A stretch of 64,000 nt of DNA from Bilabrum cf. latius (lineage: Eukaryota), in the NCBI GenBank assembly GCA_965178125.1, contig OZ237761.1, positions 1 to 64,000 on the forward strand. Direction: 5' to 3'. Positions 7,277-61,400 of this stretch are shown here, piece after piece. The notes below the pieces were generated by a model that saw nothing but the letters and a program-made list of their open reading frames with translations, made no database searches and was not told where the DNA came from. A program made the translations under genes and the position numbers. The number at the start of each line of letters is the position of its first letter. Position 1 is the first letter of the stretch.

Positions 7277-10245
7277 ATGAAGCAAAGCGGACGGAAACGA
7301 GCACCGTATACTTCCAATGCATGCTACGCTTGCCGAGCTGGCAAGGTAAGGCGGGCTACACGGAGGTACACTTTCCGCACCAACGCACTGTCTTTTCTAT
7401 CCATCTGACCGGTGAATTTGAACCGTTGAACTGCTTGCGGTCATTTTTCATCAACTATTCGTACATTCAAAGGTTACTGAGTCGGAAATTTGCGCCTTTA
7501 GGTCAGCTTGATGCCTTTGTGCATGTATTTTCCCGTGCGGCGCAGCGGAGATGTAGCGGCGCTCGTCCATGCGAAAGGTGTGCCAGGCTTGGGCGAGAAT
7601 GCGCATCAGGTGCTCCACTTGGTACGAAGCGTCCCCGAAAGACTGTGCGACAGCCCAATGCCGAACCAGAGGGATATGGACGGTCTCAACTGGCGGGCAC
7701 ATCTACTTCCAGTCGTCCTAGCGGTGGTTCTGATCGCTATTCGCGTGCAGACTCGGCCCAGTACAGCAATTCAAACAGTTTGCGTTCGCTTAATCATATG
7801 TCTGCGGAGAGTGACGGTACTCGGGCCGCCATTCTGAAGCGTCGCCGGATTGAAGCGGACTCGTCTGTACTTCTCGGGTTTGCCTCCGGCGTATAGCAAG
7901 CCTAGAGGCAAAGCATTGTTTCACCTGCTAGCATTGCAGGAGTTGATGCCCAGCGTGGGTCCGGCTCTGGCGGTAGTCATGTCGCTTTGCACTAGCAGCC
8001 GACCTCTGGCATCCAGCTCCAAGTCTCGCCAGCAACACACGCCCAATTTGCACGGATGCCCAATACCGGGCCCGTGTAGCCCGGTTTAAATATGGGAGGT
8101 ATGATGTTGTAGCATTAGGGTGGAATCTAGTCCACAGGTCAGGGTATCGCCGTTCTTTCTCCCGCAACAGCATCCCAACCCGCATTTGGGCCGCAGCGGC
8201 TCGCGCCATCTGTGGGCTATGCGGTCCCCCCCACTCAGCCAGCCCCCATGTACGTGTACATGCATTAGAACGGCCAGCTGCGAGCACCATCTGCCCCTCA
8301 GGTTGTCTATCAGGTGCCACAGCACCAACACCCCGGTGCCGGTGCCCAGCCACTGCAACCCATGCGTATATCAGAGGTATCGCAAGGCGCGCACTTGCTG
8401 GCTCACGGAGCAGGCGGCAGCAGGGCGGGGCCAGCTGCTGTTGGCATCAGACTCGATGCACTAGGGGGAGAGGGGGCTGCCCAGCCAGCGGATGTGCGCG
8501 CAGCTTTGTCCTATGGTACGCAGCCAGTTGCTTTTTCTTCGCCTGCAGGACAGGTGCAGCTTGGCGCCGCCTCAGGGGCGGGCTAGGGCCGTGTCGATGC
8601 CGGTGGATTTGTGCGAGAGAGGGCCCCGTTGGAGTAGAGGGTCACGGCTGGGGGACAGCGGCTCGCGGGGCCTGATGTTCCAGCGGTGGTGCCCTCCGCT
8701 ATCGCCAGCTCTGGCGCGTCACCCGTGGCCCGTGGGCCCAGCAGTCCGGCCCGGCTCGCAGCAGGCCGGGTCAGAGAGCAAGTGAGAGACTTCTGGCGGC
8801 GGGAGGGGGAGCGGCTCGGTCGGGAGCAGGGGTCTGGGCGGGGAGCGGGCAAAGAGAGCATCATCCGGGTGTTGCCTGGCGAGTGCAAGCGGCTGGCTGC
8901 CGCGGTGGGCAAGGTGCTCGAGTCGGACCAGGCGCTGGGGGCAAGGGGGGCAGCGGGGGCGGACGTGCTGCTGGAGGAGGACTAGTGGCTGGCTGGTCTG
9001 GACCTTGGCCAGGGTAAGGCAGCCTCGCAGCCATCTACTTCGGAGACCACTCTGGCTGGTGATCGCGCCGGAAGCACTATGTCGGCTGCATCACTTGGGG
9101 AGGGGGCCAGCGAGGGGGGGGCTGCGGCGGGGGAGCGGCATGGGGCAGATGGGGCAGCCAGTCGTCTGGCAGGGGATAGTGGAGATACCGAGGACGGCGA
9201 ATCGCCGATCGCTCGTCCGTCAAGAATGCGCGGGGGTGCGCCCGTAACCGGTGGCAGCCAGCGAGCCACCATGGTCATCTTGGAGAACGTGGCTCTCAAG
9301 CACCTACCCGTGCCCGCTGCCCGCATGGAGTTCACGTACGAGCCCAACAGGCCCTCGAGCCTGTACATTAACGACGCGGGGGCCGCAGTGCTGGGCTTTG
9401 GGTGCGAGGAGCTGTCCGGGTGCATCCGGCAGGGCTTCTTGCCGGTGGCCTACGATCCGTAGAGCTGGCTGGAGAGGGGCCGTGCGGTGCTGCCTGCGGT
9501 GCGGGACCGCCGCAGCTGGTTGGTCCACAGGTCCAAGATGCGGCGTGTGGTGAGAGGGGACGTGCAGCGGCCGTGGGAGGGCCTGCTGCTGCAGTACTTT
9601 GAGATGACAGAGACTCTGTACTTCGAATGGTTCGACAGTGATCAGTAGGAGGGGTAGTGTACAGGCTAGAAAACGGGCGGCAGTGGGCAAGCAGCCGGGG
9701 CCGAGCCTCGGAGCGGAGGTGGCTGCAACCGGTTCCGCGCTGCGATCAGTTACTTCAGTGATATCGTGGATCTGGACGAGACGCTGTGGATCTAGCCAAC
9801 GAAAGAGGCTTGGACTGGACGCGGGGGTGCAGGTCAAGCTATGGCCCCTTTCTCTTCGTCCTCATCGTCAGCAGCTTCGGGTGGCCGGCATCAGTACCAG
9901 TTCCCCTCTGGTGAGGCATGCGGCATGTACTACGTACGGCTGAACGAGGCGCATGGCCTTGGGCCCAAGCTGGAGGGGGTGCAGCGCACGGCAGGCGGGG
10001 AGCAAGTGGCTGTGGGGGCAGCCGGAGGTGAGGCGGCAACTGATGGGCCGTCCTCAAGCTCATCTGCTGGTGAGGCCACGCAGCTGACGCCTTCCGGAGG
10101 CATCGTCACGGTGGGCGCGAGCCCGCTGTTCCACCTCGTGTCACCCTACCACATGCTGGAAGCAATGGGAAGTGAAGCGCTTTCCTTGCCGGGCAGGTCT
10201 ATGGCGACTGGATCAACTATTACGAGTGGGGGCAAATAGCACTGA
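7277..10245 (+). CDS. Zn(II)2Cys6 (GAL4-type zinc cluster) transcription factor with PAS-like region, ~922 aa; exons 7277-7345 and 7546-10245
   Basis: Splicing GTAAGG(7346)...CGCAG(7545) assembles CYACRAGK|RRCSGARPCERCARLGREC, the C-x2-C-x6-C-x5-C-x2-C-x6-C pattern. Exon 2 stays open through 17 TAGs to TGA 10243-10245. PAS-like core LYINDAGAAVLGFGCEELSG at ~9360-9420. Confidence 0.85.
7346..7545 (+). other. Spliceosomal intron (200 nt, phase 0)
   Basis: GTAAGG donor, pyrimidine-rich tract and CAG acceptor. Removal restores correct zinc-cluster cysteine spacing. Confidence 0.88.
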
Positions 10246-30300: not shown

Positions 30301-33300
30301 GCAGGGCAACGGGCTAGACATGAGATAGCGGGCCGTAGTGCGCCAATGGTGCCATCTGCTGGACTTGACCGTCTAGAGATGGACGCCGTGGAGAGACAAG
30401 GGCTCGTGGAGAGACTGGCCCGAGACGACGCCAACCCGCTGCAGTCGGTCATCGAGATAGGAGCTGGCAGCCTGCACCTGATTACCGACCCGCTAGGCCT
30501 GTTTTAGCTGCACGAAACTATCGCAGTAATCAAAGAGATCCTGGGCGTGTTCCGTTTCTCGACTGTCACAGTTGAGAGTCAGGACATAGGGGGGATAATT
30601 CGAGGCGGGTCTGGCGGTATTGGTACTAGAGAGGAGGTGGGGCAAGGGCCTACCAACGGCTCCAGCAAGGAAGCAGACACTGGTGCTCGGGCGGGTGGTG
30701 TACGCAGCCGAGGTGTAGGCTCTGACGAGGGCATGCTATGGTAGTGGAAGCTAAGGGAGCAGTGGCAGCACGGCACGACCGATTACATTGGTGTGTCTGC
30801 CGCTGAGGCGCAGATCACAATGTGCAGTGTAGCGGATGCACTTCGATTCAAATGGTAGGGGCCTGGTGATGGGTCCTATCATGGGGGAGCTGCAGCTGAG
30901 GGGGGCTCACTGGGTTCCCGGCAGTTCGAGGGCCTGGAGTGGTTCTTTGGGCACCCTTGCGTGCGAGGCCCCGTAGCAGAGCACATGTGGCTGGTGGGTC
31001 AAGGTATCGAGGTGGAGGTATCGTCGAGGCAGGCCACGCAGCACCAGGCTTGGGAGCTCGAGTGGAGGGATGGCAGGGGTGCCTTGAAGGAGGATCTCAA
31101 GGGGTCAATTGAGTGGGTCCAGACCATGGTGCGTATGGACGGCGGACAGGGACTACCAGGCAGAAACCACAGCCAGTTTGGGCCAGACATGCCAGCATCG
31201 CAACCAGACGGCAAGGGGGGTGGATCAGGCAAGGCATAGCAAGCAGTTCCAACGGAGCAACGAGTGTGGATCGCGCTGCGACACGACCAAGCAAACTTAC
31301 CGAAGCACATGTCAATCCACATTCGGATGGGTGGGGCCTCAATCACTGACGTCAGTCCCAGTCCGTACACTTAGTTCCCCGATGACGTGGAGGAACAGGG
31401 TAGAGATCGGACTGGGACAGCAGAGTCAGGAGCTGGAGCGAACGGGGACTCGCCAGACTCGAGCTAGTCCCGGTATCCTCCGGCAGGCACCCCTTCACCT
31501 TTCTCCCGCGCCCGAAGGTGCATGCCGCAATCGCTTCGAATGAACACCGACCTTGCCCGACCAACTGGACCTGTTGGTCTAGGTGGACGGCGGGTTGGTT
31601 GGGTGAAGCGGAACGCTGCCTTTGCATGGACTCCGCCATTCGACCCTCTTTCAGTCGACGCGCCTAGCCTCATGTTCCCTCTGCGGGTGGCATTTCGCAA
31701 GAGCATGGCAGCTACCACTGCGGCTGTTCGTAGGCGGCTTGAGGCCCTCAAAAACGGCGATGTGGTGGCAGCTGCTGTGCGACGATCGGCTAAGCGGGAG
31801 GCAGACACGCGCGGCAAATTGAGCGCCATCGCTGAGGCACGCAGGCGAGCCATGGGGGGAATGGATTTCCAGGGGGATGGGCCTACCCGTGCATCAATTG
31901 CTTCTGATCATGATACTGCCGCAGGACCTGGGCACGAGCCAGACGAGGACAAGGGTAATGCCAAAGGCCGTGCTGCAGGAGGCACTCCAAAGCCGATCCT
32001 CGGTGCCGGAGGTACATCAGAGGGGCAGGATAGCGATAGCAGCTAGAGCACCACAAACGGCGCGGCAGTGGAAGACACGCAAGCGACAATCACGCGTGGA
32101 GACCTACTACGAGAATTGTTTTAGCCAGACGGTCTTGGGTCGCGGGTGTGGTACGCTCGCGAGCTGGGCTGGGCCATGCCTTGCGGGCTGCAACCGTTGG
32201 TGGAGCTGGCAATCGCGGACGCGGAGAAAGCAGCTGCTCGAAAGCAGGATGTGGTTGCAGGAGAATGGTACTTTTCTGACGAGGACGAAGATCGCGATGA
32301 TGCCAAAGACAGGCGTGAAATAGAGCAGGGCAGCAAGGACGAGGACGGACAAGCCGATAGCGCGGGGGGAGAGGTCGATCATCGGAAGTCACGAGGCAAA
32401 ACGGGGGGCATGGGGGCTACAAGTGACGTGGCGAGTGCGACCAGTCACAGGACGGACGGGAGCGACGAGGAGACAGACCCCGGCTGGCTGGACCTGCGCC
32501 GAGGTGACACGCGCCTGGACCAGGAGAAGGTTGCCAAGCAAGCAAAGGAACGCAGGAAGCGCGCCGCTATGCGCCTCGTGCTCAAGGAGGAGCTGTCGAG
32601 GGAACAAGCCGCGCTAGAGGTCAATGCCATCCTGGTGGCGGGCTCTCCGGGAGTACCTGGGCTGGCTGCATGCGCTCTATCGCGACAGATGAATGCGTCA
32701 CAACCGCGCACAGGTCTGCTGAGCGTGCGGCACAAGGTAGGAGGCCCTCGTCTACCGGTTGCTGCACTGCCTGTTCTCGCCATCATGGCGGCAGAGAGGC
32801 ACAAGACTGCGCAGCAGTCGGTGGCTTGCGGACCCACGGAGCTGCCCAGCCGGGGCAAGTTCCCGATGGCTGTGGACGTAATCATGCCCATTGCACTGCC
32901 GGACTTCCTGCCTCCCGCCTCTGCTGCTCCCGGTGAGTCGCAAGAGGATGCAGAGCAGGATGCTGCAGCGGAGCGCGAGCTGGCTGGCCTGGACCGAGTG
33001 GAGCTGGAAGCAGGGGGTGCGGCAGCGGTGCAGCCTGCACGAGTTCCTTCCGGCCCTGTGGACTAGCAGCACGGCGACCCTGGCTGCGGTACGGATGCAG
33101 AGCTGTTTGCATTCGAAGGGGCGTATGGCAGCAGGGAGGATAGGTGTGACGATTCGATTCCCGCGACATACTGTCCGCCCATGGCCCGAGCGTTGGAGGA
33201 CTACCCTCAGGCGTTCAAGATGCAGATCACGGTGTGCGCGGACCAGGGGACGGTTTCCTTTGTGCCTAGGTTCGTGCTGAAGGAGTTCGCCCCTTCCATC

Positions 33301-36300
33301 GGTCTCACCATCGACGCATTCAACGGAAAGTCGCCCTGGGCCGCGCTGGACGCCGTCCCCAGGCCGCCCACGAACCCGCCGATTAGCCTGCAGATATTCG
33401 CGTCGCGGACACGAGCCCTTGTGCCACCGCGGTGCGACGTGGATGGTACGCCTGACGGAGACAGGGAGATGACCGGGCACTCTGCAGCGGGAGGAGGCAC
33501 CCGCCCCGGCACCGATGCCAGTCTGCCCCGACCGACGATGCTGCTAGCTGCAGCCCGTGCCATCAGTATCCGGCTGTCTCAGAGAGTGGGAGCAGCTGCA
33601 CTCAAACCAGACGTCGTCCGACCCTCAACCGCTGCTGTCGAACAGGCCAGGCGCCGAGAGTGGCAGCGCCTGGCAATCGACGTGGATGCGGCGATGGCCG
33701 AGAGCTGGAGCGTGGAGGGGCACCCGACTGACCCCACCAAGAGAGCGACTGAGAGCACGGTGGCGTCGGTGCGCCGCCGTGCCATGCGGGTGCTTGCTGC
33801 TGAACGGATGGGCTCCATGCGAGTGCCCCAGGTCATGCTGCGCCCGAGGCGGCTGCACCTGCATCCCCTGCTCCCACTCACAAACGACGTGATCCACGAC
33901 CCCGCACTTGGGCTGATGCCGGTGCTCGTGGCCGGAGGGGGGGGGGCTGGGTCTGGAGCGGGCGGGTCGGCGAGCTAGGGCAAGCACCATGGTCCGCGAT
34001 CTGGGCCCGGAGGCCGAAGGGGCGCCTAGATTCACCAGCCCCGGGTTATAGTACCCACGATGGTGATAGAGATTCGGTCTGCCAGGGGCATCCGGCTCGA
34101 AGCAGTGGAGCCGGGGCAGCTGGGCGCATCGTTGGGGATTGTAGCTCCGGGTCTAGTGCCTGTGCCTCCCCGATGGCTCCCCTCTCGCATCGATCAGGTC
34201 CCAATGCACGGGCCATGGGAGCGCGCGCCCTAGCCCCCATTTGTACGTCCTGTCCTCTAGTCCGGAGACGAGGTGCTGCAGAGCCTGGCAGAGAAAGACT
34301 GGCTGTTCGGGCGGGGCATCATGCAGCACGATGCGCTGCAACTGCACGATTTCATCAGAGCACACGCGGCACAAGACGTCGAATGGGACCCGCAGGGAGG
34401 AAGCGGGCGCGGGAGGGGCCAGCGGCACGGGCGGACTCTTGTGGGCAATATGCCAACAGAGCTCGGTGGCCATCGGGCCTAGGATGGCCTGGCCACGAGT
34501 GCAGCCGCTGCGGAGGGCATCGCTGCCCCGAGTCCCGCTGGATTCTTCTCGGACCATGCCGCTGCGGAGATGAAGCAGATCTGGGTGTCCTCCGGCAGGC
34601 AGCTCGACCAGGCCAAGACAGCGGGGGAGAGGCTCAAGATGCTCATCCGGCCTTTCATGGAGGTGCATCGCACGATAGGGCTGCAGACGCTTGCACTGCC
34701 GTAGTGGCAGCGGCCTTGGTTCAGCGAGGCTAGCTCCGCACTGTCGAAGCGCGATCGTGCAGTGCAACGCGCCATCATGGGCTGGGCGAGGCCAAGCTCG
34801 CAGGACGCGGAGAGGAGGCGCGGGTGGGAGTCCGAGAGCTTGGTGGAGGCGGGGGTGGGGAAACCGAAGTGGGCCATGTATGCAGGCAGCCTGCAGGTTT
34901 GTCTCCGACAGGTGCACGGCGAGGGTGCGAAGCTCCTGGCGGAGACGCAGCTGGCCATCGACGTGGTGGTGCCAGCTGCCATCTATGGATGGAATGTGGC
35001 GCACGCCGGGCCGCACGCGGGCGGTCCTGTGTCGCATGCTGAGGGCAGGCCTGGGTAGATTCACACAGACATTGACACGGGTTTAACCACCTCGATCTTG
35101 TCAAGCGATACTGGGCTAGGCGGGGTGGAGCGTGGTAGCGCAGACAGCACCGGGCAGGGCGCCGGCCACGTTGCGAGGCGGCTGGCAGCCCCAGGCGTAC
35201 AGATCCCCGAACTGATCGCAACCATGCAGCACGTGGTGAAAGCCTTAAAAGAATTGTCCCCGATCCTGCGGTTTGCTCCCGACTTCGAGTCTCGTTCTGC
35301 TCCAAAGTAGTCTCTGGAGCTGCTGCCAGAGTCTTTGCCAGGCCCTGACGCCGTTGACATCCCCGTATACATGCAGCGGGAGCCGCACAGGGGTGCAGCG
35401 CTGGCCCAGCGAGAGAGACAGGGGGATCCAGGGGCCCTGTCGCGTGCAGCAAAGGCGTGGCCAGGACGTTGGTCCGCATTCCGGGTGCGTATCGTTGAGA
35501 AGCAACCCAAGCAGCTGGTCCTGCGGCATTGCCCCGTAGCTGATGACCCCCGAGATGAGCTCACGATGGACGCTCCCGCATCTCCTTTCATTTTCGGGGG
35601 CCTGCACGAGCACCTGGAGAGGCATGGCCCCTACCCTATTGGAATGAGGGGGTGGGCTGCGCGCCTGCTGAAGGGGGCTGGGGTATCTGGTGAGGCCATG
35701 TTCGACGGTGGTGGGCTAGAGGGCATGCTGCGAGCGGCTTCGCTGCATATAGGCGGGGGCCAGGGCGGCCTGCAGGTACCAGCAGCTGCAGTGGCATCCC
35801 TGCCTCTGGCTCTCGCCCTCCCGTTCGCCACCCGGGCGCAGGCATCTCTGCATCGGTTCGTGCTTGAGCACCTCAGGCAGGAACAACGTTTGCAGGGGGT
35901 GGGCAGTGGTCGGGCCAGGGGGGCCGTTGCCAATAGGAGAGGTGGCGGACTTAGTAGGCAGACGGGACACTCAACGGATCTGTCTCCAGACAGGCCTCCA
36001 GAAAGCGAGTTACCAATGCCAATCGGCTGGCAGCTGCCCGGCCGCACCACCGGAAGGGAACTCATGGCAGAGCTCACTTCCAGGCTGCATCTGTCGGACT
36101 ATGCAGGGGCAGTGCAGTCTCCCACAAGCGCCGATGAGGTCGTGAAAGCGGGTCTTCCCTACGACTGGGAGGGCGAGGATACTGCCGTTCCTGGTCTTGA
36201 GCCAGATGGTCCATCTCGGGCCCACAAGGACAGTGCAGACGAACGGGAGGATGACTCGCGGAGGCGTTCAGCTTCAGCTACTGCAGTACAGTCGAGGATT

Positions 36301-36906
36301 ATGCCCATGCCAGCTCCGGACGGGCAGGCACCAGTCCCGAGCGGGGGCCTAGACAGCACGGGTGGCGACAGCAGCGCCAGCAGCGGGCTGGAAGGCATCC
36401 TGTCGGCAGAAGACATTGCGGCGATCGAGCAGGCCCAGGAGGCGCAGGCACTCGTGCAGAGGGTGACGAGTGGCATGTCCGGTGTAGAGAGGAGGCCATT
36501 GATTGACGGCGTAGTGTTCAATGAGGGTGCCAACCGGGAGCAGCCGGAGGCGGAAGAAGCGGCCTAGCAGGACTTCAGGGGTGCGGAGGGGCGGAAAGGG
36601 TAGGAGGAGAAGCGGGGGTCTCCAGCACCAGGGCATGGCCGCATGGGCGGAGGCGTGGACGATGTATCAGCGGATGGGAACAACGACGACAATCCGCTGG
36701 AGGCTCTGCGTGACTGCGCTGCGCTGCTGCGTGGAGGAGAGCAGGCGACACCGGGTGGGTCGGTCGATCTGGAGGCGGTTGCCAGGGCGATTGAAGCGGC
36801 CAGTCGAAAGGTAGAGTCTCAGCTGGCGGAGCAGTAGCGATCCATTCGATAGCTGGCCGCGCAAGGCGCCGAGCTTGCGACTCTGTTGGCTGACGGTGAC
36901 ACATGA
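18373..36906 (+). CDS. Giant single-exon protein (~6,177 aa with TAG=Gln); N-terminus chorein-N-like, candidate VPS13/ATG2/BLTP bridge-like lipid transfer protein
   Basis: 18,534-nt frame from ATG 18373 to TGA 36904-36906 with ~52 TAGs and no TAA/TGA (gaps between track ORFs read manually). The N-terminus ALKSYFP...KLRLPFE...IELISVQLDVSKL...LPVEVVVEGVHLRMQ and MVPGLNLSVRDLTLVVED resemble chorein-N. Alternating-hydrophobic beta-strand segments recur along the length. The ORF is secure; the family is an inference. Confidence 0.8.
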
Positions 36907-44551: not shown

Positions 44552-47500
44552 ATGAAAAGCCGCACAGCAATCCGCAGCAATTCGCATGTTAAGTCTACTG
44601 TGATTCAAAATCCGATGGTCGCAGGGCGAGCATAGCGCAGTTCTCAGCGATCCCCCCTTGCGACCGATACGCCCGCACCGGCGGAATCCGATTCTCAGGG
44701 CCAAGATGCAACTTCAAACGAGTGGAACAACTACTTAGACAAACAAACAGTATCGCTAAAGGTTGCACGGCCACGGGTACGAGTTGATGTTTGCTCTGCT
44801 GCTGTATTTGCGGAACGGCAAGCCAACAAGCAGAATCCAGATGGACTCGCAGGATATTTCGCAAGCACGCTGTCGTGCGGAGCGTGCGATGATCCTACGG
44901 TTCAGTTCAACGTGCTTCATCCAGTTTCGTGTGAGTTCGTACCCAATCAGACCCCCATACCCGCTACAAGAAGCCCTTTCATATGCTCGCGACGGTCTTC
45001 AATGCCATGTCTGCAGTGCGGCTCACACCTGGTTCGCTGACCATGGTGCTTTCAAACCCTGGAGGTGGTACAAGCACCCTGCTGAAGCTTATTTCGGGGC
45101 GCCAGCTTCCGCACGAGGGAGAAGTTATGTTCAATGGATGCAGTTCCGTCGATCTCCAGCGAGTCTCTGGGGCGGACCACCGCAGAATTGCATCGTATGT
45201 GGGCTAGGCTGACGTACACGAGCCAATGTTTTCAACGCGAGAAATGTTTGAAGTAAGATTTTGCATATTAAGCTGCCATGGTGCCCCGCTTAAGTGACTT
45301 GCATGGTTCAATGCAATCTCTAGTCGACGCCACCTGGGCGCAGTTTGCTGCTGGAGCTACGTTTGGAGGCATGCAGCAAGAGATTGCGGATTCTAAAGAT
45401 AGATTCCTATTTCAGCCAGCGGCTCGTGCCACCGCAATGCTCAAACTGCTGCGGTTGGAATCCTGCGCCGACACGAGCGTCGGCAGCGCAACCATTCGGG
45501 GCATAAGCGGCGGCCAGAAGCGCCGAGCGTCTCTCGGAGAGGTGCTCTTGACCGAACCACGGGTGCTTTGTGGGGATGAAATCACCGCAGGTCTTGATGC
45601 TGCTGCTGCCGAAGAGGTGGTGCTCCGCCTCAGGGAGTATGCCCGAGTTACCGACGCGACCGTGGTGCTTGCGCTGAAGCAGGCCACCCCGGGCATGTAC
45701 GAGTTATTCGACGAGGTGGTGCTCCTAAGTGACGGGCACGTGATCTACCACGGGCCTAGAGAGGAGCTCGAGGGAAACCTGGCGGCCAGGGGGTTCCCCC
45801 CGCCCCAGGAGGGGGACTTCTGCGACTGGCTAGCCGCACTCGTCACAGACCCCGCCTTGGCCACACCTGCTGGTCACACGGGACCTGTCCCGACAGCAGA
45901 AGAACTGTCGACTGGTGTCAATGGCTGGTACCGCAGCGACGCCTTTAAGAGGCACGTCGACCGGCGCTCGCCCCCTAGGTCGGCACTGGGGCAGCAGCTG
46001 CTACCCCAGGGGCAAGACCCAAGCGCTGACTACGATGACCTCGGGCTGTTCCTGCGGACAAGCCCAGCCCTTGCCCTGCGGTTCGGAGAGGGTAGTAGGA
46101 TGAATTTCTGTTCGAGGTTCGGCACTATGATGGCGAGGCAGGGCAAGCTGATGTGGAGGCACCCGGTGCTGACCAGGGTCCGCTGGCTCGAGTCCATTCT
46201 GCTGGGGCTGCTGTATGGGGCGGTTTTCTTCTAGCCCGACGTGAACGATTTTGCGCCCAGGCTTGGTGTGAGTAGGCTACGTGTCAATCGATTGTGATCG
46301 TCGAGTGCATTTGCCGAACCCTAGCTCTTCTCTGTGCTCGCCGGTTTCTATCATCTCGACCGCTCGCAGCTCGCAACTGTAGCGCTGGTGCACGTTGCTT
46401 TTGATTTTGCCGTGAGTATTCCGAACGCCACTGTGCCATGCATTTGCTAGACATCATAGGCGTGCGGACGTCATGTGGCTGTATTCTGCTCATTTGCTAG
46501 TTCCGCAGGAAGTGCACGCTGGTATTGACGGCAGAGCTGTGGCGTACAAGCTCTCCCGGTCGGGCATATTCGACGACTTCATGTACATCCTTGCAGTCTG
46601 CCTTGTGCATGCCCCAGTCGCCCTGATCAACGGACTGTGCTTGACTGTGTGCGTCTATTTTCTTGCCGACTACTCACTGGAATTCACTCGATTCATGGTA
46701 TACTGGGTGGTGCTGTTCAGCGCACAGATGGCAATGTCTGGTTGGTTTAGGATGCTGACTTACATCAGCCCGTCGTTTGAAGTGGCGCACACGCTTGGCG
46801 GCACTGTAGTTGGAATCTTCCAACTGACGGCGGGATTCCTGGTGACCCGCACCAACATCCCCATGTTTATGCGATGGCTTTACTACGTGAACCCGCTCAG
46901 CTGGGCGCTCCGTAGCCTGGCATTGAATGAGTTCTTCGCTACCAGGTACGACAAGCCTGTGGAGCTGGGCATAGAAGGGATACGCAACGGGACGGTGGGT
47001 CTACATACCTACCAAGCCATGCAAAACAACTCGAGCACGCTTAGAAAGCGAGAGGCCTTCCTAGCCGTCTTCGACATCGAGGATGATTCGTAGCTGGCGT
47101 GGATGTGGGGAGCTGTGGCGTACATGCTGGGCACATGGTTCCTCTTCGGCATCGTTCTGTCCTACTTTGCTCTGGCCAGCTGCAAATATGACTCGAGGCC
47201 GGGGACGCAGCGAGTGTATGACGAAGGCATCCGCAGGCAGCTCTCAAGGAGGCGCTCCTTCATGCGAAAGCAGTCCCTGTCTACCGCGCGGTCCATCAGC
47301 TCTGCCAAACGGGCTGCTACTGGACCGAGCGCCAGCACCGAAGAGGACGAGTTTAACATGGTAGGGGGCTTCAACAGAACCAACGCGGCTGACACGTTGG
47401 AGTTAGACACAGTCGAGCTTGATGCAGGCACCACCACGTCCTGCCATGAAGAGCCGTTCCATGTGCCTTGTCCTGCCAGTTCAGACGTGGAGAGATCTGG

Positions 47501-49583
47501 TTCAAGCATTCAAGACGGGAACGTTCAGTGTGTCCCGGTCGAGCTGGCGTTCAATGACATTCAGTACGTGGTATCTGTGCCTTCTTCAGGCAGTAACCGC
47601 GCAGGCACCGCACTCTCGGAATCATAGCAATTCCATGCATTTGATGCTCTTCGGGCGTAGGCAGGGTATACCCATGTAAATGGCCGTGCGGGTGGTATCG
47701 GCTCTGGCCCCATCGCTGATGGCGGTGCCAGTCAGCTGCCACTGCTCCAGGGAGTATCCGGTATTTTCAGACCAATGCGTCTAGTTTGCTTGATGGGTGC
47801 GTCAGGCGCGGGAAAGACAACATTACTGGATGTACTCGCTGGCCGCAAGACCCAGGGCACGGAATCAGGCGTCGTTCGTCTAAATGGGCGGCCAGCATCG
47901 AAGCAATAGCGGGCTTCCTTGACTGCATATTGCGAGCAGACCGACCAGCACTTGCCGACATTAACGGTCGAAGAGTCACTGGATTTCTCGGCTAGGCTGA
48001 GGCTAGACGCAGATACTGCAGAGAACGAGAGCAAACGGCACGCAATCGTGAGCCATGTTATGGAACTGCTTGAGCTAGACTCCATCAAAGGCCGGCCTGC
48101 TGGCTCTCTGTCTGTCGGCGAGGCCAAGCGCCTCACCATCGGCTGCGAGCTGGTGGCCAACCCGAGCCTGCTCTTCCTGGACGAGCCAACTACAGGGTTA
48201 GACTCTAGATCTGCCGTGCAGGTGATGCATGTGCTGCAGAATGTGGCACAGACAGGTCGCACCGTGGTTTGCACGATCCACCAGCCGAGCTATGACGTGT
48301 TCACATCCTTTGACGACGTGCTACTGCTAGCCAAGGGCGGGCGGCAGGTGTACTTCGGTCCCATTGGCGACCACTGTGAGGACCTGGTGAGGCACATCGA
48401 GGCACATCCAACTGCTACACTGCGCCCGATCAGAGTAAATCCGGCAACTTGGATGCTAAATGAGCTGGAGGCGGAACGGGAACGAGTGGACGCATTATTG
48501 GCAGGCGGCGGTACATCCGGTACGGAGGGCCAACCCCTGGTACTTAAGCAGCTCAGATCGAGCCTCCTTTTTGAGACGTTCAGGGACTCCTAGGCATTTG
48601 CGTCTTTATCCCGGGAGCTAAAGCACAGCTAGGCTGCCCATTCATCCGCTGCCGGGCGCACGCAGGCTCGCACCAGCAAGTTAAACGACCTGGCTAGATT
48701 CGCGGCTGTCCTAGAGAGAACCTTTACGGACAGCTACCGTGATATAACCTTCAATGGATCAAGGTTTACAACCCTAGTTATGCTTGGACTCATCTTTGGC
48801 TTGCTGTTTTTCGGGTTAGATTTCACGTCAAGTCAAGGCGGCGTGCTATCCATGGTTGGGGTGCTGCAGAGCATGGCATCCTACAGCGGGATCCAGTCAC
48901 TTGCGGCGCAGGTGGTGCTACTATACAAGTATAGACCGAACTTCTACAGAGAGAGGGCACTTGGGATGTACGGCACCACGACCTACTACCTGACTATGGC
49001 ACTGAAGGAGGTCGTGTACCTCGCCTGTCTTTGCGTGGTATTCACTCCGATTGTGTACGCCTTCGTTGGGCTTCGGTTCGACCAGATCAGCGTGTTTGCC
49101 GAGACGATAGCCAGCGTATTCATCGTGGGGTTGCAACTGTCCCTCATGTCACAGTTCTTTGCTGTGGCTTTTTCGAACGTGCACACGGCCGAGTTTTTCG
49201 TCGGGGAGCTGTTGCTCATCCAGACCATTTTCAACGGGGTATTCACGTCGGGCGTACAAAACTACAAACCTGCTCTGCGCTGGCTGGCGTACCTGAACCC
49301 ACTCTTTCTCGTAAATGTGCCTCTGGCCCTAAACTAGGCTCACTGCTTCGATGCTGGGCCCCCGGCTGACGAACTAGCTCGTATTGAGGCCGGGTGTCCC
49401 ACAATTTCCGTGGTGAACAACGGTGTCGAGCTGGTGCAGACGGTGGAAGGTTATGTAGAGCAGCTAGTGGACGCGACCTATGCGGAACGTTGGAAGTACT
49501 ACGTCGGAATATTGGCGATCACTGCTGGGTACCAGGCCCTTGGGTACGTGCTTGGGCAGGTGCTTGACTTCTAGAAGCGCTGA
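44552..49583 (+). CDS. Full-size ABCG / pleiotropic drug resistance (PDR)-type transporter, NBD-TMD-NBD-TMD, ~1,551 aa; exons 44552-44930, 45017-45252, 45344-46267, 46370-46411, 46509-49583
   Basis: NBD1: [14 protein letters not shown][TAG][28 protein letters not shown]2: [74 protein letters not shown]. Two TM blocks; C-terminus LDF[TAG]KR-TGA. 11 in-frame TAGs. Start could be 44615. Confidence 0.93.
44931..45016 (+). other. Spliceosomal intron (86 nt, phase 1)
   Basis: GTGAGT...CTGCAG. Removal gives [20 protein letters not shown], matching the PDR pre-Walker-A segment. Confidence 0.8.
45253..45343 (+). other. Spliceosomal intron (91 nt, phase 0)
   Basis: GTAAGA...GCGCAG. Removal gives STREMFE|FAAG (family pattern TVRETLEFAA). 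Confidence 0.85.
46268..46369 (+). other. Spliceosomal intron (102 nt, phase 0)
   Basis: GTGAGT...TCGCAG, preceding a 42-nt hydrophobic exon [14 protein letters not shown]. Confidence 0.72.
46412..46508 (+). other. Spliceosomal intron (97 nt, phase 0)
   Basis: GTGAGT...CCGCAG. Removal gives [18 protein letters not shown] (family pattern AE......R.VFYK). Confidence 0.75.
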
Positions 49584-49756
49584 GGATCCGGAGGATATGG
49601 TTCTGGAAGATGGAGACGACTAAATGACTGCCATGTACGTCCATGTGAACTCATTACGTAACTTACTATCAACTCTGCAGAGGAGAGACTCCATTTTATC
49701 TTGCTGCAGCCTGTCAACATGGGTGGGTCGGTCCACACAGATGCATTACTAAGCTC

Positions 49757-51910
49757 TCAGCGAGTTGCCATCCCAAGCGGAGGCACCACCCAGACAAACT
49801 CCTCGGCAATGACGCGCCCAGTGCCCTCACCAGGGCATTCCACAGCATGCCCATCGCAAGACTTGCTGCAGCTCCAGACGAAGACCGATAGAAAATCAGT
49901 CCCTAGCAACAGGCCGGCCGGAGCGCCAGCAGGGCGGCCTGTTTCTGCTTCTGCTATCAGGGACGGCAGCAGCTGCACCTCAAAATCGCAGGTAGCGCCG
50001 CACCGGCGGCACGGTGGCACGGTAGGCCTCACCTTTGACGAGGCCGGGGGTGCACCTGTTGGCCACAGGGGTTCGCCGCCGTACGCATATCGAGCCAACT
50101 ACCGGGGCGCGCAGGCCACTCGTGCTCTAAACGCATCCAATGAAGCCTTTATTACCAGCGACGAGGCGCCGCTTTGTCTAGCTGCGCACACGCTTCCGCC
50201 GATACTGGACTCGCCACCTGAAGACCCCTTCCCCTTGCCATGAGCTCCACGCCTCAATGGCTTCCCCTTCCCTTTTACAGTGCTTCCGTCACCAGAATGT
50301 CCAGCAGTTCTCCATCCGCCCGTGCCTCGCCCCGCTAATCCTGGTCCCTCCTCTTTCTCCGCCGTCTCCGATCTCCAGCTCGCCACTGAGGAAGCCGTTG
50401 AGCGCCGGCCTGCCCCACTGTTGCCTCCCTGCGGCCGCTATCCTCGCATCCAATCCCTGCGCAGGTCATCGTCATCGCTGTCGTCTTCCTCCTGGCCCGG
50501 CCCCATGCTTCGACTAGAACCGATCGATCCGTCTCCAGGGCTTGTTCCCACCGCAGTGCTCGGCAACAAGTCCAGAAGAGATCCTGCACCCGCACTCGCG
50601 GCATGCTTCTCGTGCTTACCTCTGCCTTTTCCCTTTCCTTTCTCTTTGCCTTTTGGTGTGTGCAGTGCATGCTCAGCCCCTCCCTTGGCTGCACCACTCC
50701 CATCGCCGCTAGTCATACCGGCGTCTTCCTTCTCCTGTGCAAGGTACCTCTGATAGAGCTCTTCAATATGCGCTGCGTCCCCACTACCTGCAGTCATCGC
50801 GCCGGTTCCAGATCCCGCTGCACTCCTGCCGGTCCCTACCCTTTCCCTGTCTCTTGCTTTCTTTTCGGCAGTCAGGGCCTCCCACGGCTCCTCCTCGCAT
50901 TTCACGGGCATCACAGGCAGCACGATTCCGCTGTCCGTGCCCGCGCCTGGCCCGATCGAAGGGTCCATACTAGCACCTGCTGCTTCCGCTGCACCAGTAG
51001 CAACAGGGGCGCTACTAGTTGAAGCGAAATCAGTAACGCCGGCATCGGAGTCCTACTTTGTCACCCCCGTCGCTGTGCTTCCCACCTGCCTGAACGTGCT
51101 AGCAGACCTGCTGGGTGATCCGGAGGTAGCATCTGCCCTATCTGAGTCTGGCGCTGGCCCAGTGCCGTGCGACTATGTATCTGGCCCGATACAGGCAGCA
51201 AGATCAATGCCTTGCGTAAGCACAGGGCTGCCACTAGCAGGGTCAGAGGGATCGGCTGCAGCTGCAGCGATCGATCCAGTGGCGGAAGGACCCGAGCTCG
51301 TGCCAGTGGTCGGCTCTGTCCAATCCACTGCTGCTGCAGTGTCCCACGGATTTGGTTCGCTGCCAGCAGCCTGGTCTGGGGAATCCACTGCGGCCCAGTC
51401 CGCTGCGCCGTCCTCCGTTGCCTCACCCTCTGGGACCGGGTCTCCAGGGGCGCCCCATGCGCTGCTCGTGTCTTGGTCCAGCCCGGACCAGTCATCAGCG
51501 GCATCTGGTGTGACACCAGACGAGCTAGGTGCGCTAGGCTAAGTCGGACTAGAATCATGACCAGCTCTTGTACTGGAGGTTGGCTCTACTGACGGCTCCG
51601 CCGCCCTGCCGCCTGGGGCTTGGCTGCGAAACACGCGTACTGTTCCAGGCAATCCAGCGCAGTCACTGCGGCGACATACGAACGTATTCAGATATCTCTT
51701 CTCAGTTCCGTAGCATGGAGCGTGAAGCTGCATCAAGTGAATCATTTTGTCGCTGCAATTTCTGCATGTTGGCGTTCTTCGCGGCAACGGTGGTCTCGGA
51801 GCTCCGCCAACGAAAGATGCTTGTGACAAACTTGTGGTTTTCCCCTACAAATCGCAAGACGCGACAAGTAAAACTGCCTCTTCATGCGATCTTGGTCCCA
51901 CAAACGACAT
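49757..51910 (-). CDS. PDCD2L: PDCD2-like / Tsr4 family protein (uS5 chaperone, PDCD2_C domain), ~717 aa
   Basis: Minus-strand frame from ATG 51910 to TGA 49757-49759 through 6 TAGs. N-terminal SFVGGAP...CRNCSDKMIHLMQLHAP...RYLNTFVC....C...VRVFRSQ. C-terminal AFRARVACAPR[TAG]LARYAYGGEPLW...PPCRRCGATCDFEVQLLPSL...DF.SVFVWSCSKSC...EEFVWV. No MYND finger seen. Confidence 0.87.
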
Positions 51911-52068
51911 CACGCGCTAAATCAGGCCGAATAGTTGGATTCTATCCCTTTATCTATTTGGCTCCGGATGTGAGGTACTGGGGTTAGTAACGTGCGAGTC
52001 AAACAAAATCGGAATTTCTCACATCTTGCCAAACTGCAACAGTTGCACTTACCTTCGCACCTAGGGCT

Positions 52069-54161: not shown

Positions 54162-57100
54162 ATGAAGCGAAAGCGTGAGGCAGGCGCCAAAGGGGCCGGA
54201 CCAGATTCGAGCGACCCAACGAAGCAACCCAAGGCTGCTAGAAAAAGCACAGTCTCGGCCTGTCTAGCTTGCAAAAGAGCCAAGCGTTCTTGCTGGGCTG
54301 AGAGACCATGTCCCCGATGTGTAAAGCGCGGGATTCCGTGTGTCGAGGTGTTGGACCGCAGGAGCAAAGCCTTTCGTAAAATAAAGTCTGCTGTGAGCGG
54401 GTAGGCGTCATCCTCCATCGTGGTGTCCGTGCACGGGAAGTCCGATAGAACTACTGTGTTCAAGAAAAACCTATCAAAAGGTGCGCGCGAGTCTCTGAAT
54501 GCGGCGTCCAGTGACAGCGCAGACCACGCCCCATCGGATCCCACTACGTCAGAAGACAGCACAGAGTTCAGGCCCAGTACGTTGTTGGATACATAGGAGA
54601 AAACAGTTCGCTGCGATCAGACAGTGAATGATCGGAAATGCAGTAGACCATCTGGCATTGCTGGCCCGCACCAAGCTGCTGCCAGTAGAGGGATACTCCG
54701 TTCTCGTACAGCTAGCCTACCTGCCGCTGGCATGTAGTCTTCCTCCTCTGTATCGTACGCGGAGCAGCAGCTGAGGATCCGTCAGTTAATGGCGCTTGGA
54801 CCCCCGCTATCCATGTCCCAGCCGATGCTGACGATGCAGATCGACAGCAGGGGCGGTCTCCTAATGACGGTGCGGCAGGACCCCACGCACCCAGGTCTGC
54901 AAGCTTTGCTTGGCCAGGACTACAACCGCACCGTTTTCGTGCCACCGGCCATCGAGTCGGCTGCGAACGGGGTGTTGCTGCCGGATGGCGCTCGGCCTGT
55001 GCTACCCCCCCAAGCGCTCCAGCTGCAGAGTGCCTACCAGATTCAGGCGCACGACGCCTACATGTTCGACCAGCTGAGCCGGTCCCCCATCCCAGTGATG
55101 CGGCAAACCTACAATATGCTCACTCTGCAGCCGATGCAGCTATTCATGAACGCAGCAACTCTCGGCATGGTGTGCGGGGAGGAGGAGGTGGCGGTGGCGT
55201 ACATGGGCACGTCTGACTAGCTGATGGAGATGGACCCAATCAGCGCCGTGCTGTAGTCCACCAGCCAGTTGGGAGCTATCATCGGCAGGCGAAGGACGTT
55301 CACGCTGCCTGGTCAGATGTGCAGGCATTTCTTCGTGTCTGAGAAGGCAAAGCAGGAGGCCATGGAGTTTGTCGGATTGGTGGAGGAACAGGGCGAATCC
55401 TACACCAGTGCGGCACGCAAAGCGGTTGCAATCGTCGGTGAGAGACTCGCGCAGGCTCAGGCTCAGCACCACACATCTGCTGGTGCATCGAAGGCGAGCA
55501 GCGGCTTTGGCTCGGCATCGGGCGGAATGGCGGGGGGTGCACGAGCGAGAGCAGGATCAGGATCCTCGTCAACTGGGACGGATACATAGAGCAGCCTGAG
55601 CGGAGAAGGGGAGGCCACCCATTAGCAGGCAGGGGAGGAGGAGGAGCCGCTCTTCGACTTCTTGACGGAGCGCGTGGCCTCGGTGCTCTTCTACGTCGAG
55701 CATGAGATTACTGCCGACTGGGTAGGCACTGCCCCCCGGGCGTTGTGCGGACAGCTCAAGAACTGGGAGAGTCTCCCGAGTAAAGAGGAGCATCTCGGGG
55801 AGTTCCGTGGCCTTGCTGACCAACGGATCCAAGGGCCTTACCTGCCATGGTGCTGGGCCGCCGCAGAAACCATTGAAGCGAAGCAGAAGGAGGAGCCTTT
55901 CCGGCCGTGGTCGACCCGACCGACAAAGTTACCAACTAGACGTTTGGATGGATCTGTCTAGCCCCTTGCTTCTGGGACAGGGCATCCCCCAGTCCCGCAT
56001 CCAGCAGCGCAGAGTGGCGATGCAGCGACGCCACCTTCTAGCCGTGACGTGACGCACGGCCAGCACTTGAGCCACCCTTCCTCTGGACAGGAGTCGTCGG
56101 GTGCATCGGTCCCTATTGATGGCGTACAGTCAAGTAACCCTTCGTCATCATCCGGAAAAGGATCCTCTGGCGCATCAGCGGCCACCGACCAAGACAACAT
56201 CGCCGACGATGCGTCCAGCTTGCCACGCGGCAGGGCTTCCGCGATGCATGCCACCTCGACCAGCAGCCGACCTGGAAGTGCTGCGTCTGGAGTATTGCAA
56301 GCCGGCAGTTCCACCACAGCTCATCAAGGTCCAGGCCACGATTGGATGCAGACTCCGGCCAGTGGAAGCCCCAGCGCCGGATCTGCTGGTAGCAGCTTGC
56401 ACATGCCAGCAGGGGAGGGCAACGACCGCGCCGGGCGATTCGCCCTAGGCAGCCCTTAGAGCTTGGCGCTTGGCTCCTTGGGAACCGGCTCAGTACTCGA
56501 TGATGGTGCCGGCAAAGGCGCCGGCAATGACGATGCGTCCTCTCTTGCATCACATGGGATGCAGCCCATGATGCTCGGCTCTCCCTCTGCTGGTTTCGAT
56601 GCTGGCGCCGGCGAGTCGAAGCAGTCCCGATCGTGGGGTGGATTCGAGCCGGGTGAGGTGGCACTCACCCGTCCCATTTCAGCAGCAGACACACACAGGA
56701 TGGACCCGCCGAGGGGAAGCACAAAGACATACGTGGAGGCGCCGTCCTTGGGCCTGCCATATTCGGGGTCATAGCGATTCCTGAGTCCGGGGTAGGCAAG
56801 TGGTCAGCAGGCCATGATCGAGGAGGGGATGCCGGGTGCACACGGTGCAGGTGCTAGCAGTGGTGGATCGGCGTATGGAACCGGCGCTGGAGTAGGTGTC
56901 TCGTCATCGTCAAGCAGTGCAATGATTGGTGCTGGCAGCAGCAGCAGCAGCAGCAGCAGCTCTCATGCAGCTGCAGCTGGTGCAGGCCACGGCATGAGCA
57001 CACTGCAGCCCATGCCTATGGTGCACCGCTTCGGCGGCGTCAGGCGCTCCGATGATCCAGGCCACGGTACGGCTGCAGGTCAGATTTGGGATCTGGACGA

Positions 57101-57578
57101 GATCAGCGAGGTGTCCGGCTCAGTCATGTCCAGCTTGCCGCCCTCCAAGCGTGCCCGGACGGAGCGGGGCGGCGCCGGTGGCACAGGCAGAGCGGTGCCG
57201 CGGATGGATGGTGAAGATGGATTCGGATCACCTCTCGGGGAGGCATCAGGCACTGGGTCGTATGCGTACGTATGGCCTGAAGCGTCTGATTCCCCAACTC
57301 ATCACGAATTGCGCCAGGATGCCGCGGGTGGTGCAGCGCACCTGTCTCCTGCCGACCGTGCCAGACTCCGGTGGATCCCGCGTGAGCTACTCGCGGTGCT
57401 GGACCCAGTGGACGTGCAGATGCTGAAGAGGAAGGTCGTTCTGCAATCGGAGCTGCAAGCATGGCACTTCGATTTCCGCAGGAGGCTGCAGATGCCGGGG
57501 AGCAGGCTGGGTGAGGAGCTGACGAGGTTGATCCTGAGTGCCTCGAGCGGGGATGCGAGGATAGTTGGACCATCGTAA
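54162..57578 (+). CDS. Zn(II)2Cys6 zinc-cluster transcription factor, ~1,138 aa
   Basis: ACLACKRAKRSCWAERPCPRCVKRGIPC near the N-terminus. The frame continues through 11 TAGs to TAA 57576-57578, with Ser/Gly/Ala low-complexity regions. Confidence 0.85.
56935..56960 (+). repeat. (AGC)n microsatellite encoding poly-Ser within the second zinc-cluster gene
   Basis: gcagcagcagcagcagcagcagcagc read as AGC Ser codons. Confidence 0.8.
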
Positions 57579-58479
57579 GTTACATAAATGATCGTCATTG
57601 CATGTACAATACGCTGTGCATTACCGTCCGCAGGGCATGATGTCTGTGACGACGCCTACGAGGTGACACGGCTCTATGGGTAACTGTCTATTTCTGAATC
57701 AAGTCGACATGCAGTGACAAGCAAAAACATTCTTGGATCTGTAAAGAGCAGATCTAAGCCCAAGAGCTGAATCATACTATTAATGACCAAATTTGATCCG
57801 GATGCTAGCCATCGGATTGCGACGACTACGTGGGATCTTGCCTCGTTAAGAGCACCCAGGGATCCTGGATCCTGGATACATGCCAGGGTATACGCGCAAC
57901 CTAGTCTCTAAATCAATCAGACATGGCAAGACCTGACGAAGCTGTGCATGTGCGCGACCCTTGACCAGATTGACCGGGCTAGGAAGAGCACGGGCACCAC
58001 ACCGCCGAGGAGGAGGGGGTCGGGAGGGTGGGCAACAAAATACCCAATCTCCGCACCTCTCCTAGAGAGGATATGCGCGTCATCGCAAAGCAATCCGTTG
58101 TCATTGGTCGCATCTTCCGATTGCGACCCCCAGCGGAACCCACGTGACGTCCCAGCGCTTTCACCCTGACATCCACTCCGAACCGCATTCGGCGATAGGA
58201 TCCAGACACCAACTCAAAAGATGAAAGCGATCAAAAGCTGTAGCATTAAAAACACATGCTGAGTAGAATGGCAAGACGTAGGAGCCTCTACTTGACTCCG
58301 ATTCCGACTATTACTACTCAACTGGCGCCCACCCGGGTGGCACCACATTGCACACCACTGGCGTCCATCGCACACTCAGCTGGCACGTGACCCCCATATC
58401 ACGGCTGGCATCCCACCAGCACTTCCGCTAACGGATATTGATCCGTTTCCCACGGACCGTACTATGCTCACAGTGTTGA

Positions 58480-61400
58480 TCAGAGTGGCACCTTCTTCTG
58501 GAGGATGACGTGTACCCCACTTGCAGCCTTCTTGCCGTGGAACAGAGGCATAACCTCAGACGGGCTGAGCGAGGCCGCGCCCATCCCTTCTTCCGCCCCC
58601 CCTCTCTCTTCAAAGGCCTTGTAGAGTGCCTTAATGTCTCCCAACGAGCAAGCAACAGCATGCCTCACGTCCTCGTTCATCAACCCAGAGTCCTACATAA
58701 GGTCTAAAACGGCCAATTCGGTGGTAAGCGTGACGACAGAGCGGCGTGATTCCTGCCACTTCTTGGGCGGGTGCGTTACGGAATCCGCATGGGCGGCTTC
58801 GACTGTGGTGGATCGATCTAGCACGAACTCAAACCCAATCTCGGGGGACTCTGAGCTTGTGCTTGCTACCACCACCAGGGGGTGGGACTGCAGCCTTGTG
58901 CGCCTGTCGATTCCCCCCTCTTCGCTGGGGTCCTTGTTCGGAAGGTACCGCTTCATGAACTCAGAGAGTGACTCGGCATCTGTAAGACCTGTGACTGCAC
59001 TGATGAGAGTGGCTGGGCCCGCAGTGCTCATCTCGCCATCCATTGTCTGGATTAGGTAGGGAGACGTACGGAAGGCTAGAGCCATTGCAACCAGGTCACC
59101 AATCCGGGCAGATGGCGTGGCCAGAGCGTGCGAGAGACTTGCACTAATGCCGTCATGCAGGTCCTATCTCGTGCCCTCCATGTTGCCAGTAGAGGCCAGA
59201 CTGAGTTCCAGGATATAGAGCTTGAGTGCATCAACCGTCCTGTTTATGGGGTGGCGGAGCTTGCCATTCCCACTGGAAGCCCGCGCGCCTCTAAGGGTCC
59301 GACCCCTGTTTGCCCGCATGCCAGTCCTACCGTGCTGCAGCTGCAGGAGCAAGGGCTCATTGGTATCGATCACATCCTTGTCGATCGTAGAGTCAACACT
59401 TGAGGAGAGATCATTGCCCTCGTGCAGTGGTGGCAGATTGCTGTTCTTGGCTTCGCTGCGAGGCTTGGTCTCCACGCGCCCTCGTGCCTGAAGGCTGCGC
59501 TGACCAGCGGCATCGAGCGCTTTCGTGTCGAAGTGTGGCCCGGCGCTGGACAACCACTCGTTGAATTGGCCATCGTCAAAAGCAGCCTTCAATTGTTCGT
59601 CGAGCAGCTTGAGGTCGGTCTCTCCCATAACCACGTGCGCGAGGCGGGTCAGCGCCCTCACGTTAGAGATCATGCCGTTTTCCTTGGCATCCGAAATAAG
59701 CTTGGTCAAGTGCCTTACTGCATGCACCAGGCCAGCAAAAGCTGCTTGCTGAGGCCGCATGGAAATCTTGGAGCTCGTGCTTGATTCCTCGATGGAATCA
59801 GTTTGCTGGCTTTGCTAAGCCTGAACTTCGTCTGCGGGGACGCCGATCCACTTCGGCATGCATTTGTCCCAAAACTAAGAAGCCACACCCGTTTCGATAC
59901 GGATCGTTCGCACTGCAATCGACCGGAGGATTGCGGCCGCCTTCCGCGTTAGTTGCTCCTGCTTCTCTAGAGCCAGTGATGCGAGCTCCAAGGCGACGTC
60001 TGGCTTGTCAGTGAACTTGGCGGCGCCGTTGCCTGCCATCGTAATAGCCGTCTGGAACGCAGCCTTCCTCAGCTGATTAAGATCCACCTCCGGATCCGGC
60101 TTGTCGTTGAACGTTGGGAAGCAAACGCGGTCGCCCAGTTTCCAGAGGTCTTCCAATGCGATATTGCGGGCTTCCTCGGCTGCGAACGCGAGGGGCCTCG
60201 TCATGCCAGCGTTCCCGGCCGTTTGGAGGTCGGAGCGAACACGTCCTGTCTACACGTCAGACACGTAAGGTGTGGCGCCCTGTAGCGCAAGGAAGGCAGC
60301 CATCCCGCGGTAGAAGCTGTAGCTGTCGCGGGAGCTACCGTCGAGCTCACCAGCTAGCCAGAACTCCTTGTCCAGCACTCGCTTCACTGCATCCCGCAAA
60401 GTAGCGTCGGGGTCGATGTTGTCGAATAGCACTGGCCGAGCCTGCACCTTCGACTCGCAAAACTGGCCAGCATAGCCCTGCTCGCACTCGCAGACAGCGC
60501 GAAGCTTGCCGAGAGCTGAAGATGCCTCTGCCACGTCTAGTGGAAGGGTTGCGGCGTCGCGGAAGATGCACTGTCCGTGGCCTGAGCAGTACTCGATGGC
60601 ATCGTCGGGTCCACTCTCTCCGCACCATCCAGCCGTAAGGCGACTCGCGCCATGCATGGCTGCTTCCACATCTCGCAGTGTCGCTCTTGGAACCGAGTAG
60701 TCCTTGGTGACGTGTAAGAATGATGTCAGCGCGTCACTGCCTGTGCGCACTTCAATGAGACCATCTTCCTGCCCACTTTTAGGTTCATAAGCTCTATTCG
60801 TTTCTGAGTGCGAGCCACTTTCGAACATGTTGGCCTTCTTGGCTGCACTGGGGCTCTTGAGCGCAATGGAGTATACGCGCTTGCCACCCTTATTCACTCG
60901 GTAGTAATAGTCCTCCAACGGTTTGTTTAGACTGTCCAGCTCTTCGGGAGTCAAAGGGGCGCGGTAGCTCTTTATTGACACATCAGAGACCGGCGGACCA
61001 CTTGCGTGCAGTGCGACCAATGCCTGCGAAAACGCAGCGTAGTTCTCCTTGTCCGGCCGGAGGCGCTTGTCCTTGCTACGTGTTACTGCTCGACTAAATC
61101 CGACGGGCGCGAACACCTGGGTCTCCCCCTGGATACCCATGTAGTAGTCATCATTGAGGCAAACGGCTTTCGAGGAGAACTCAAAGCTCTTCTCTTCCCA
61201 CACCTTCAGCTGGAGCAAACCGTTTACGACGGACACCGCCTGCGCTCGGCTGTATGCTCGCTGGCTGGGGCTGAAGGACTTGACGGGGCCAGAGACAGAA
61301 GTATCCCTCATCTCGGGCTGGCTCTGGAATAGGTGCAGGTCGCTGCGACCCTTCTGGGCGATGCCAGCGTACGCGCTCTTGGCCCAGGCATCGTGCTACA

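Follow-up and report, generated by a model that had tools for sequence, protein, structure and literature searches.

Sequence comparison places an in-frame TAG within the conserved C-terminus of an ABCG transporter, three codons before its TGA stop

The stretch of DNA analysed here (the window, 64,000 nucleotides) begins with CCCTAA telomere repeats, which occupy at least the first 300 bases from position 1, and is therefore taken to be a chromosome end. Behind the CCCTAA tract a degenerate G-rich subtelomeric repeat is seen at 2300-2480, and over positions 1-2500 the reading frames are open in several phases, up to about 2500. The GC content is about 60% (~55-68% over most of the length). The standard code interrupts the long frames, whereas counting TAG as a residue gives fused ORFs of 1201, 974, 758, 6177, 2364, 1138 and more codons; in the 12 genes of the window, TAG accounts for 129 of 18,015 codons, that is, for 16% of the Gln codons. 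The Pfam families found are eukaryotic: CDC20/Fizzy-type WD40, PDCD2_C, Zn2Cys6 cluster, glycosyltransferase 1, PNP_UDP_1 phosphorylase, and ABC_tran together with ABC2_membrane. The CDC20/Fizzy-type gene is FZR/CDH1-like, and the best named matches of its protein come from plants and green algae (32-49% identity). The longest frame, at 18373-36906, is uninterrupted over 18.5 kb (6177 codons) and contains 52 TAG; neither of its halves matches a Pfam family. ORFs 7321-10245 and 54162-57578 encode long low-complexity proteins, the latter with the Zn2Cys6 cluster; the former matches no Pfam family, although its N-terminus has, by eye, a Cys-rich stretch like that of the latter.

As for the decoding machinery, a tRNA scan of the 64-kb window returned no tRNA gene, no eRF1 gene lies within it, and Rfam gave no match at the gathering score. 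Below that threshold, a C/D snoRNA-like element (Afu_300, 57584-57699; 29.3 bits against a cut-off of 40 bits) is the sole match in 57500-58500. In the intergenic region at 57880-58100, which has no Rfam match either, the contig depth lies far above that of the flanks in four out of four runs (508 versus ~30-45 in run X5), with many loose contig ends and small indels, and this region is probably a dispersed repeat.

Table 1. Features of the window related to the reading of TAG, with their coordinates (positions of the whole stretch).
Feature	Coordinates	Strand	Remarks or basis
TAG CAC TGA, end of ORF 7321-10245	10237..10245	+	TAG 2 codons before TGA 10243
Successive stops TAG CAC TGA CAT GGC TAA	10237-10251	+	sequence
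Two in-frame TAGs of the 6177-codon ORF	36835..36852	+	23 and 18 codons before TGA 36904-36906
Full-size ABCG (PDR-like) transporter gene	44552..49583	+	1551 codons, 11 TAG; spliced contigs, Pfam
ABCG exons	44552-44930, 45017-45252, 45344-46267, 46370-46411, 46509-49583	+	start codon provisional
ABCG introns, all GT..AG	44931-45016, 45253-45343, 46268-46369, 46412-46508	+	X5/X6 contigs
TAG at Q-loop Gln of NBD1, YVG-q-ADVHE	45205..45207	+	Q 48/62, 8 gaps
TAG at family Gln position AVFF-q-PD	46232..46234	+	Q 28/62 homologues
TAG at family Gln position ALN-q-AHCF	49335..49337	+	Q 39/62; L001 CAG, L002 TAG
In-frame TAG, third-last ABCG codon, read as Gln	49572..49574	+	sequence, homologues, L001 CAG
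AAG CGC (Lys-Arg), conserved basic C-terminus of the family	49575..49580	+	homologues, L001, L002
TGA, true ABCG stop	49581..49583	+	homologue ends; TGA in both relatives
PDCD2-like gene, convergent with ABCG	49757..51910	-	Pfam; X5 record 2 spans 49662-51921
Successive stops TAA GTT ACA TAA	57576-57587		sequence
Successive stops TGA TCA ACA CTG TGA GCA TAG	58465-58482	-	sequence

Spliced contigs from X5 and X6, two runs not recorded as RNA, served to place the introns of the ABCG gene (Table 1) and to correct its gene model. These contigs join across the four GT..AG introns, which argues that the gene is transcribed and spliced, and the spliced frame is open along all of its codons; a pseudogene is thereby ruled out. 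Between a 102-nt and a 97-nt intron lies a micro-exon of 42 nt, seen in spliced X6 contigs; X5 shows one junction of this exon as well. A further contig, X7 (49135-49722), does not differ from the window and adds no independent depth. The protein shares with full-size ABCG/PDR-like transporters the order NBD-TMD-NBD-TMD, NBD first, and a basic C-terminus directly after the last membrane helix, and it aligns along 62 full-length homologues. It differs from named ABCG proteins in that the nearest of them, from the choanoflagellate Salpingoeca rosetta, is 26% identical over the part searched; its closest relatives are environmental sequences. From the ABCG stop to the TGA of the convergent PDCD2-like gene there are 173 nt, a distance that bounds the 3'UTR space of both genes, and transcript contigs, which by their nature cannot show RNA ends, extend 95 and 37-180 nt beyond two stops.

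At the end of the ABCG gene, positions 49560-49583 read GTG CTT GAC TTC TAG AAG CGC TGA, and the protein, with TAG taken as Q, terminates in ...VLDFQKR. The DNA thus contains exactly the LDF-Q-KR-stop described in the initial annotation; the TAG occupies 49572-49574 and the TGA 49581-49583. Homologues were sought with the last 397 residues among 1.84 billion representatives, and the whole protein was aligned with the 62 matches longer than 1150 residues. In this alignment the TGA-delimited end is flush with that of 59 of the 62 full-length homologues, whose last residue is K or R in 57 cases; two basic residues close the protein in 33 of them, and exactly KR in 30. The residue aligned with the TAG itself is more variable (I 15, L 13, Q 8, V 6, and others). 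The annotation had also seen here the PDR pattern (L/F)NFQ(K/R)R, and this comparison bears out one part of it: homologue P0065 ends in VNFQKR, but the commonest form among the nearest relatives is [IV][NS][HFY]-x-K-R, x being I, L, Q or V. P0007, an environmental fragment of 120 residues with 55% identity, ends in NYQRR, and its metagenomic DNA (L001) reads AAC TAC CAG AGG CGG TGA at the homologous end, while a second relative (L002) reads TTC CTA AAG CGG TGA, its protein ending in KR. In non-coding DNA of the window, the chance that two K/R codons and then TGA or TAA come after a TAG is 4e-4.

Taken together, a family end lying two residues past the TAG, the DNA of the orthologues and this low chance value place TAG 49572 inside a conserved protein that stops at TGA. 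As judged from these sequences, then, TAG 49572 is a sense codon and TGA 49581 the true stop, and the claim that the TAG three codons before the TGA is sense holds, on the homologue ends and the L001 DNA. Since L001 has CAG and L002 CTA at this position, the TAG may be a recent change, and the presence of Q in only 8 of 62 homologues suggests that Gln itself is not required there. If the TAG is young, KR-TGA may also be persisting by inertia. By the general topology of ABCG transporters, the basic pair after the last membrane helix would face the cytosolic side, and this would provide a reason for selection to keep the pair.

Two other places had been pointed out as carrying near-terminal TAGs, and all three codons (10237, in TAG CAC TGA, 36835 and 36850) are located where the annotation put them. 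No protein with a length of 126-403 residues matched the last 230 residues of the 6177-codon ORF at E <= 0.01. The 17 codons from TAG 36850 to the TGA score 0.618 per codon (codon-usage log-odds, trained on genes stripped of their last 30 codons), compared with a coding-window mean of 0.344, and none of 408 in-frame 3'UTR windows reaches that value. By codon-usage score, what follows TAGs 36835 and 36850 looks coding-like; homology proves a near-terminal sense TAG at one site (49572). TAG 10237 allows three readings: a sense codon, a residual stop, or a one-time stop that is read through to a back-up TGA.

Counted over the 12 genes, TAG is not less frequent towards the stops: there are 4 in the last 25 codons (2.1 expected), 4 in the last 50 (4.3 expected) and 7 in the last 100 (8.7 expected). 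No depletion is thus seen in the last 25 codons, within the limits of a small sample, and under a model of tenfold depletion the probability of finding at least 4 TAG there would be 7e-5. The last 3 codons show instead a nominal excess (2 against 0.25 expected; P = 0.027, post hoc), which is also what some residual TAG stops would produce. Had TAG kept its terminating role, a TGA or TAA would follow it by chance within 3 codons in ~9% of genes. Such counts are circular unless the terminal TGA is a real stop, so each near-terminal TAG needs support of its own. As a sample, the 12 gene ends are compatible with a UAG that terminates weakly or partially when close to the 3' end.

The remaining two stop codons behave as dedicated terminators. 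Ten of the 12 gene ends are TGA and two are TAA, and the 18,015 codons contain neither in frame. TGA closes all three genes whose C-termini are conserved: besides ABCG, these are the FZR-like gene, whose protein ends in LR (IR in 110 and LR in 3 of 120 homologues), and the PDCD2-like gene, in which the PDCD2_C domain reaches residue 708 of 717. Other ORFs of the relatives end in the same two codons. Upstream of ABCG, L002 carries at 2-1966 an ORF like polysaccharide lyase family 8, with 3 in-frame TAG and a TGA end, and another ORF in the relatives ends in TAA. Extra in-frame stops lie 2-5 codons past the terminal stop in several genes (Table 1); they may be tandem back-up stops, with a count in the 12 genes that is not above rough expectation.

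The residue encoded by TAG is best judged where the family is conserved. The Q-loop column of the first NBD has Q in 48 homologues and E in 3, without L among its five residue types, and together with the 8 gaps these make up all 62; in the column of TAG 49335 there are 39 Q, 5 E and 2 L. The family Gln positions named in the annotation, ALN-q-AHCF and AVFF-q-PD, are borne out by these and by the 28 of 62 homologues with Q at the latter. Both L001 and L002 also carry in-frame TAG, and TAG interchanges with CAG or CAA among the window and the two relatives, in particular with CAG of L001 at two sites, 49335 and 49572. It might be argued that TAG is sense but stands for Glu or Leu, or that mRNA editing turns it into CAG. 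In the TAG columns of the window, L001 and L002, the others (n = 29) do show Q 6, E 8, K 5, D 3, R 2 and L 2, and the FZR-like gene has two TAGs at 14788-14802, in an N-terminal motif region (SL-q-YSS-q-LR), of which the second (14800) corresponds to Leu in 50 of 60 homologues and the first to Ala in 39 of 60. This is, however, the only site speaking against Gln, and because three Gln sites are strongly conserved, TAG 14800 is taken as a substitution. Both the Q-loop and the 49335 columns, with few Glu and few or no Leu, and the TAG/CAG interchange stand against another amino acid, and editing is ruled out by the spliced contig of X5 record 1, which keeps TAG 44633 and 45205 without a single difference from the DNA over them. 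This whole family of explanations is accordingly regarded as highly improbable; on the aligned sequences TAG is a sense codon, with Gln as its best fit. A nuclear code in which UAG alone passes to Gln is what we take to be NCBI table 15.

More demanding is the question of whether UAG is sense everywhere. Our favoured reading, held with good confidence, is that UAG is an ordinary Gln codon at any place within coding DNA, even when three codons away from the end, and that termination is left to UGA, in most cases, and to UAA. Were UAG position-dependent, sense in gene bodies and a terminator near the 3' end of the mRNA, ABCG would end in ...VLDF and KR-TGA would be an untranslated relic left by a recent change from CAG to TAG. 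That the TAG at 49572 is not common to the relatives, which have CAG and CTA, would fit such a relic, as would the nominal excess in the last 3 codons and the small 3'UTR space between the convergent stops. But TGA and TAA, dedicated and never in frame, leave nothing that forces ambiguity; TAG is not depleted before stops; the sequence is coding-like past TAGs 36835 and 36850; and the basic tail of the ABCG family has been retained in frame and in the right place. Dual use, in addition, was tested with a negative outcome in other UAG-only codes, as far as the available parts of PMC5304391 and PMC11687900 go. We therefore consider position dependence very unlikely. A leaky dual decoding, with UAG mostly Gln and a minority of termination everywhere or near gene ends, would yield both ...DF and ...DFQKR, and since competition between eRF1 and a suppressor tRNA is the general rule, it has a rational basis. 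Against it stand the 52 TAGs of the 6177-codon ORF and the 11 of ABCG, which would require termination of ~1% or less per codon if full-length protein is to be made in useful amounts: with 5% termination at each of 52 UAGs, full-length product would fall to ~7%. Termination within gene bodies should thus be rare, and leakiness as a whole is unlikely. Full reassignment, which the annotation had preferred over context dependence, is therefore likely on account of the sense TAG at the third-last codon and the lack of depletion, with the reservation that it relies on one near-terminal TAG proven by homology and on 12 genes.

Under full reassignment, UAG 49572 of the ABCG mRNA would be read as Gln, the conserved Lys-Arg would be added and termination would follow at UGA 49581. 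Judging from other UAG-only codes, as treated in the accessible portion of PMC5304391, the decoding would be carried out by a tRNA-Gln with anticodon CUA, unable to read UAA, and eRF1 would have lost the recognition of UAG while keeping that of UAA and UGA. A sense UAG so near the true stop, at a distance of 9 nt, argues for a switch in the decoding machinery itself (tRNA, eRF1), and not for mRNA context. In practical terms, gene models for this genome could then safely read every TAG as Gln. More speculatively, the organism of the window and two or more environmental relatives, with ABCG proteins 50-55% identical, in-frame TAG and TGA/TAA ends, may form an undescribed non-ciliate clade with a UAG-to-Gln-only code in which termination at UAG has been wholly lost, some near-terminal TAGs (e.g., 10237) being fossils of earlier stops, past which translation continues to a back-up stop close by; we regard this as possible, but doubtful. 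If it were true, it would need an eRF1 able to tell UAG from UAA. Different meanings for UAG and UAA are rare outside ciliates, and how one eRF1 keeps UAA yet drops UAG is the mechanistic question that they raise. The presence of the code in the organism and in environmental relatives is a more interesting fact than the near-stop TAG. Unambiguous UAG has already been reported for other UAG-only codes, and the result from the window, based on one gene and a sample of 12 genes, is incremental.

Comparison with known codes gives this result its proper frame. The contrast with Condylostoma, Parduczia and Blastocrithidia, to which the annotation appealed, carries little weight, since those codes provide no dedicated stop for their ambiguous codons while the window keeps TGA and TAA, and with these two kept an unambiguous UAG is the default expectation. 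What the window has in common with the codes of Condylostoma, Parduczia, karyorelicts and Blastocrithidia (UAA) is the occurrence of standard stop codons in frame inside genes. Condylostoma magnum and Parduczia sp., according to the portion of PMC4967479 at hand, have no dedicated stop for their ambiguous codons, which are depleted shortly before the ends of coding sequences, and their 3'UTRs have medians of 21-23 nt; the window, by contrast, has dedicated TGA and TAA, and TAG is not depleted near the ends. With two dedicated stops and no depletion in the 12 genes, these two defining features of a Condylostoma-type code are absent.

Closer parallels are found among the codes in which UAG alone has been reassigned, represented, in the parts available of PMC5304391 and PMC11687900, by Iotanema spirale (Fornicata; Gln), a rhizarian (Leu), Protocruzia tuzeti and some phyllopharyngean ciliates. 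In the literature searched, outside of which most subscription journals fell, Iotanema was the only non-ciliate lineage found with a UAG=Gln-only code. In it, first-downstream UAGs were judged to be sense in 81 of 81 cases (PMC5304391, as far as its accessible text goes), and in a phyllopharyngean lineage with UAG=Leu, the available portion of PMC11687900 reports UAG without depletion near annotated stops. The window resembles the UAG=Gln codes of Iotanema, Protocruzia and the phyllopharyngeans in that UAG is Gln, with UAA and UGA as stops, and it differs from ciliate-type genomes in its CCCTAA chromosome end, its GC content of ~60%, its ORFs of up to 18.5 kb and its GT..AG introns. With the rhizarian exLh, for which the accessible part of PMC5304391 gives UAG as Leu and true stops that are exclusively UAA or UGA, it shares the reassignment of UAG alone, but the conserved TAG sites of the window correspond to Gln and not to Leu.
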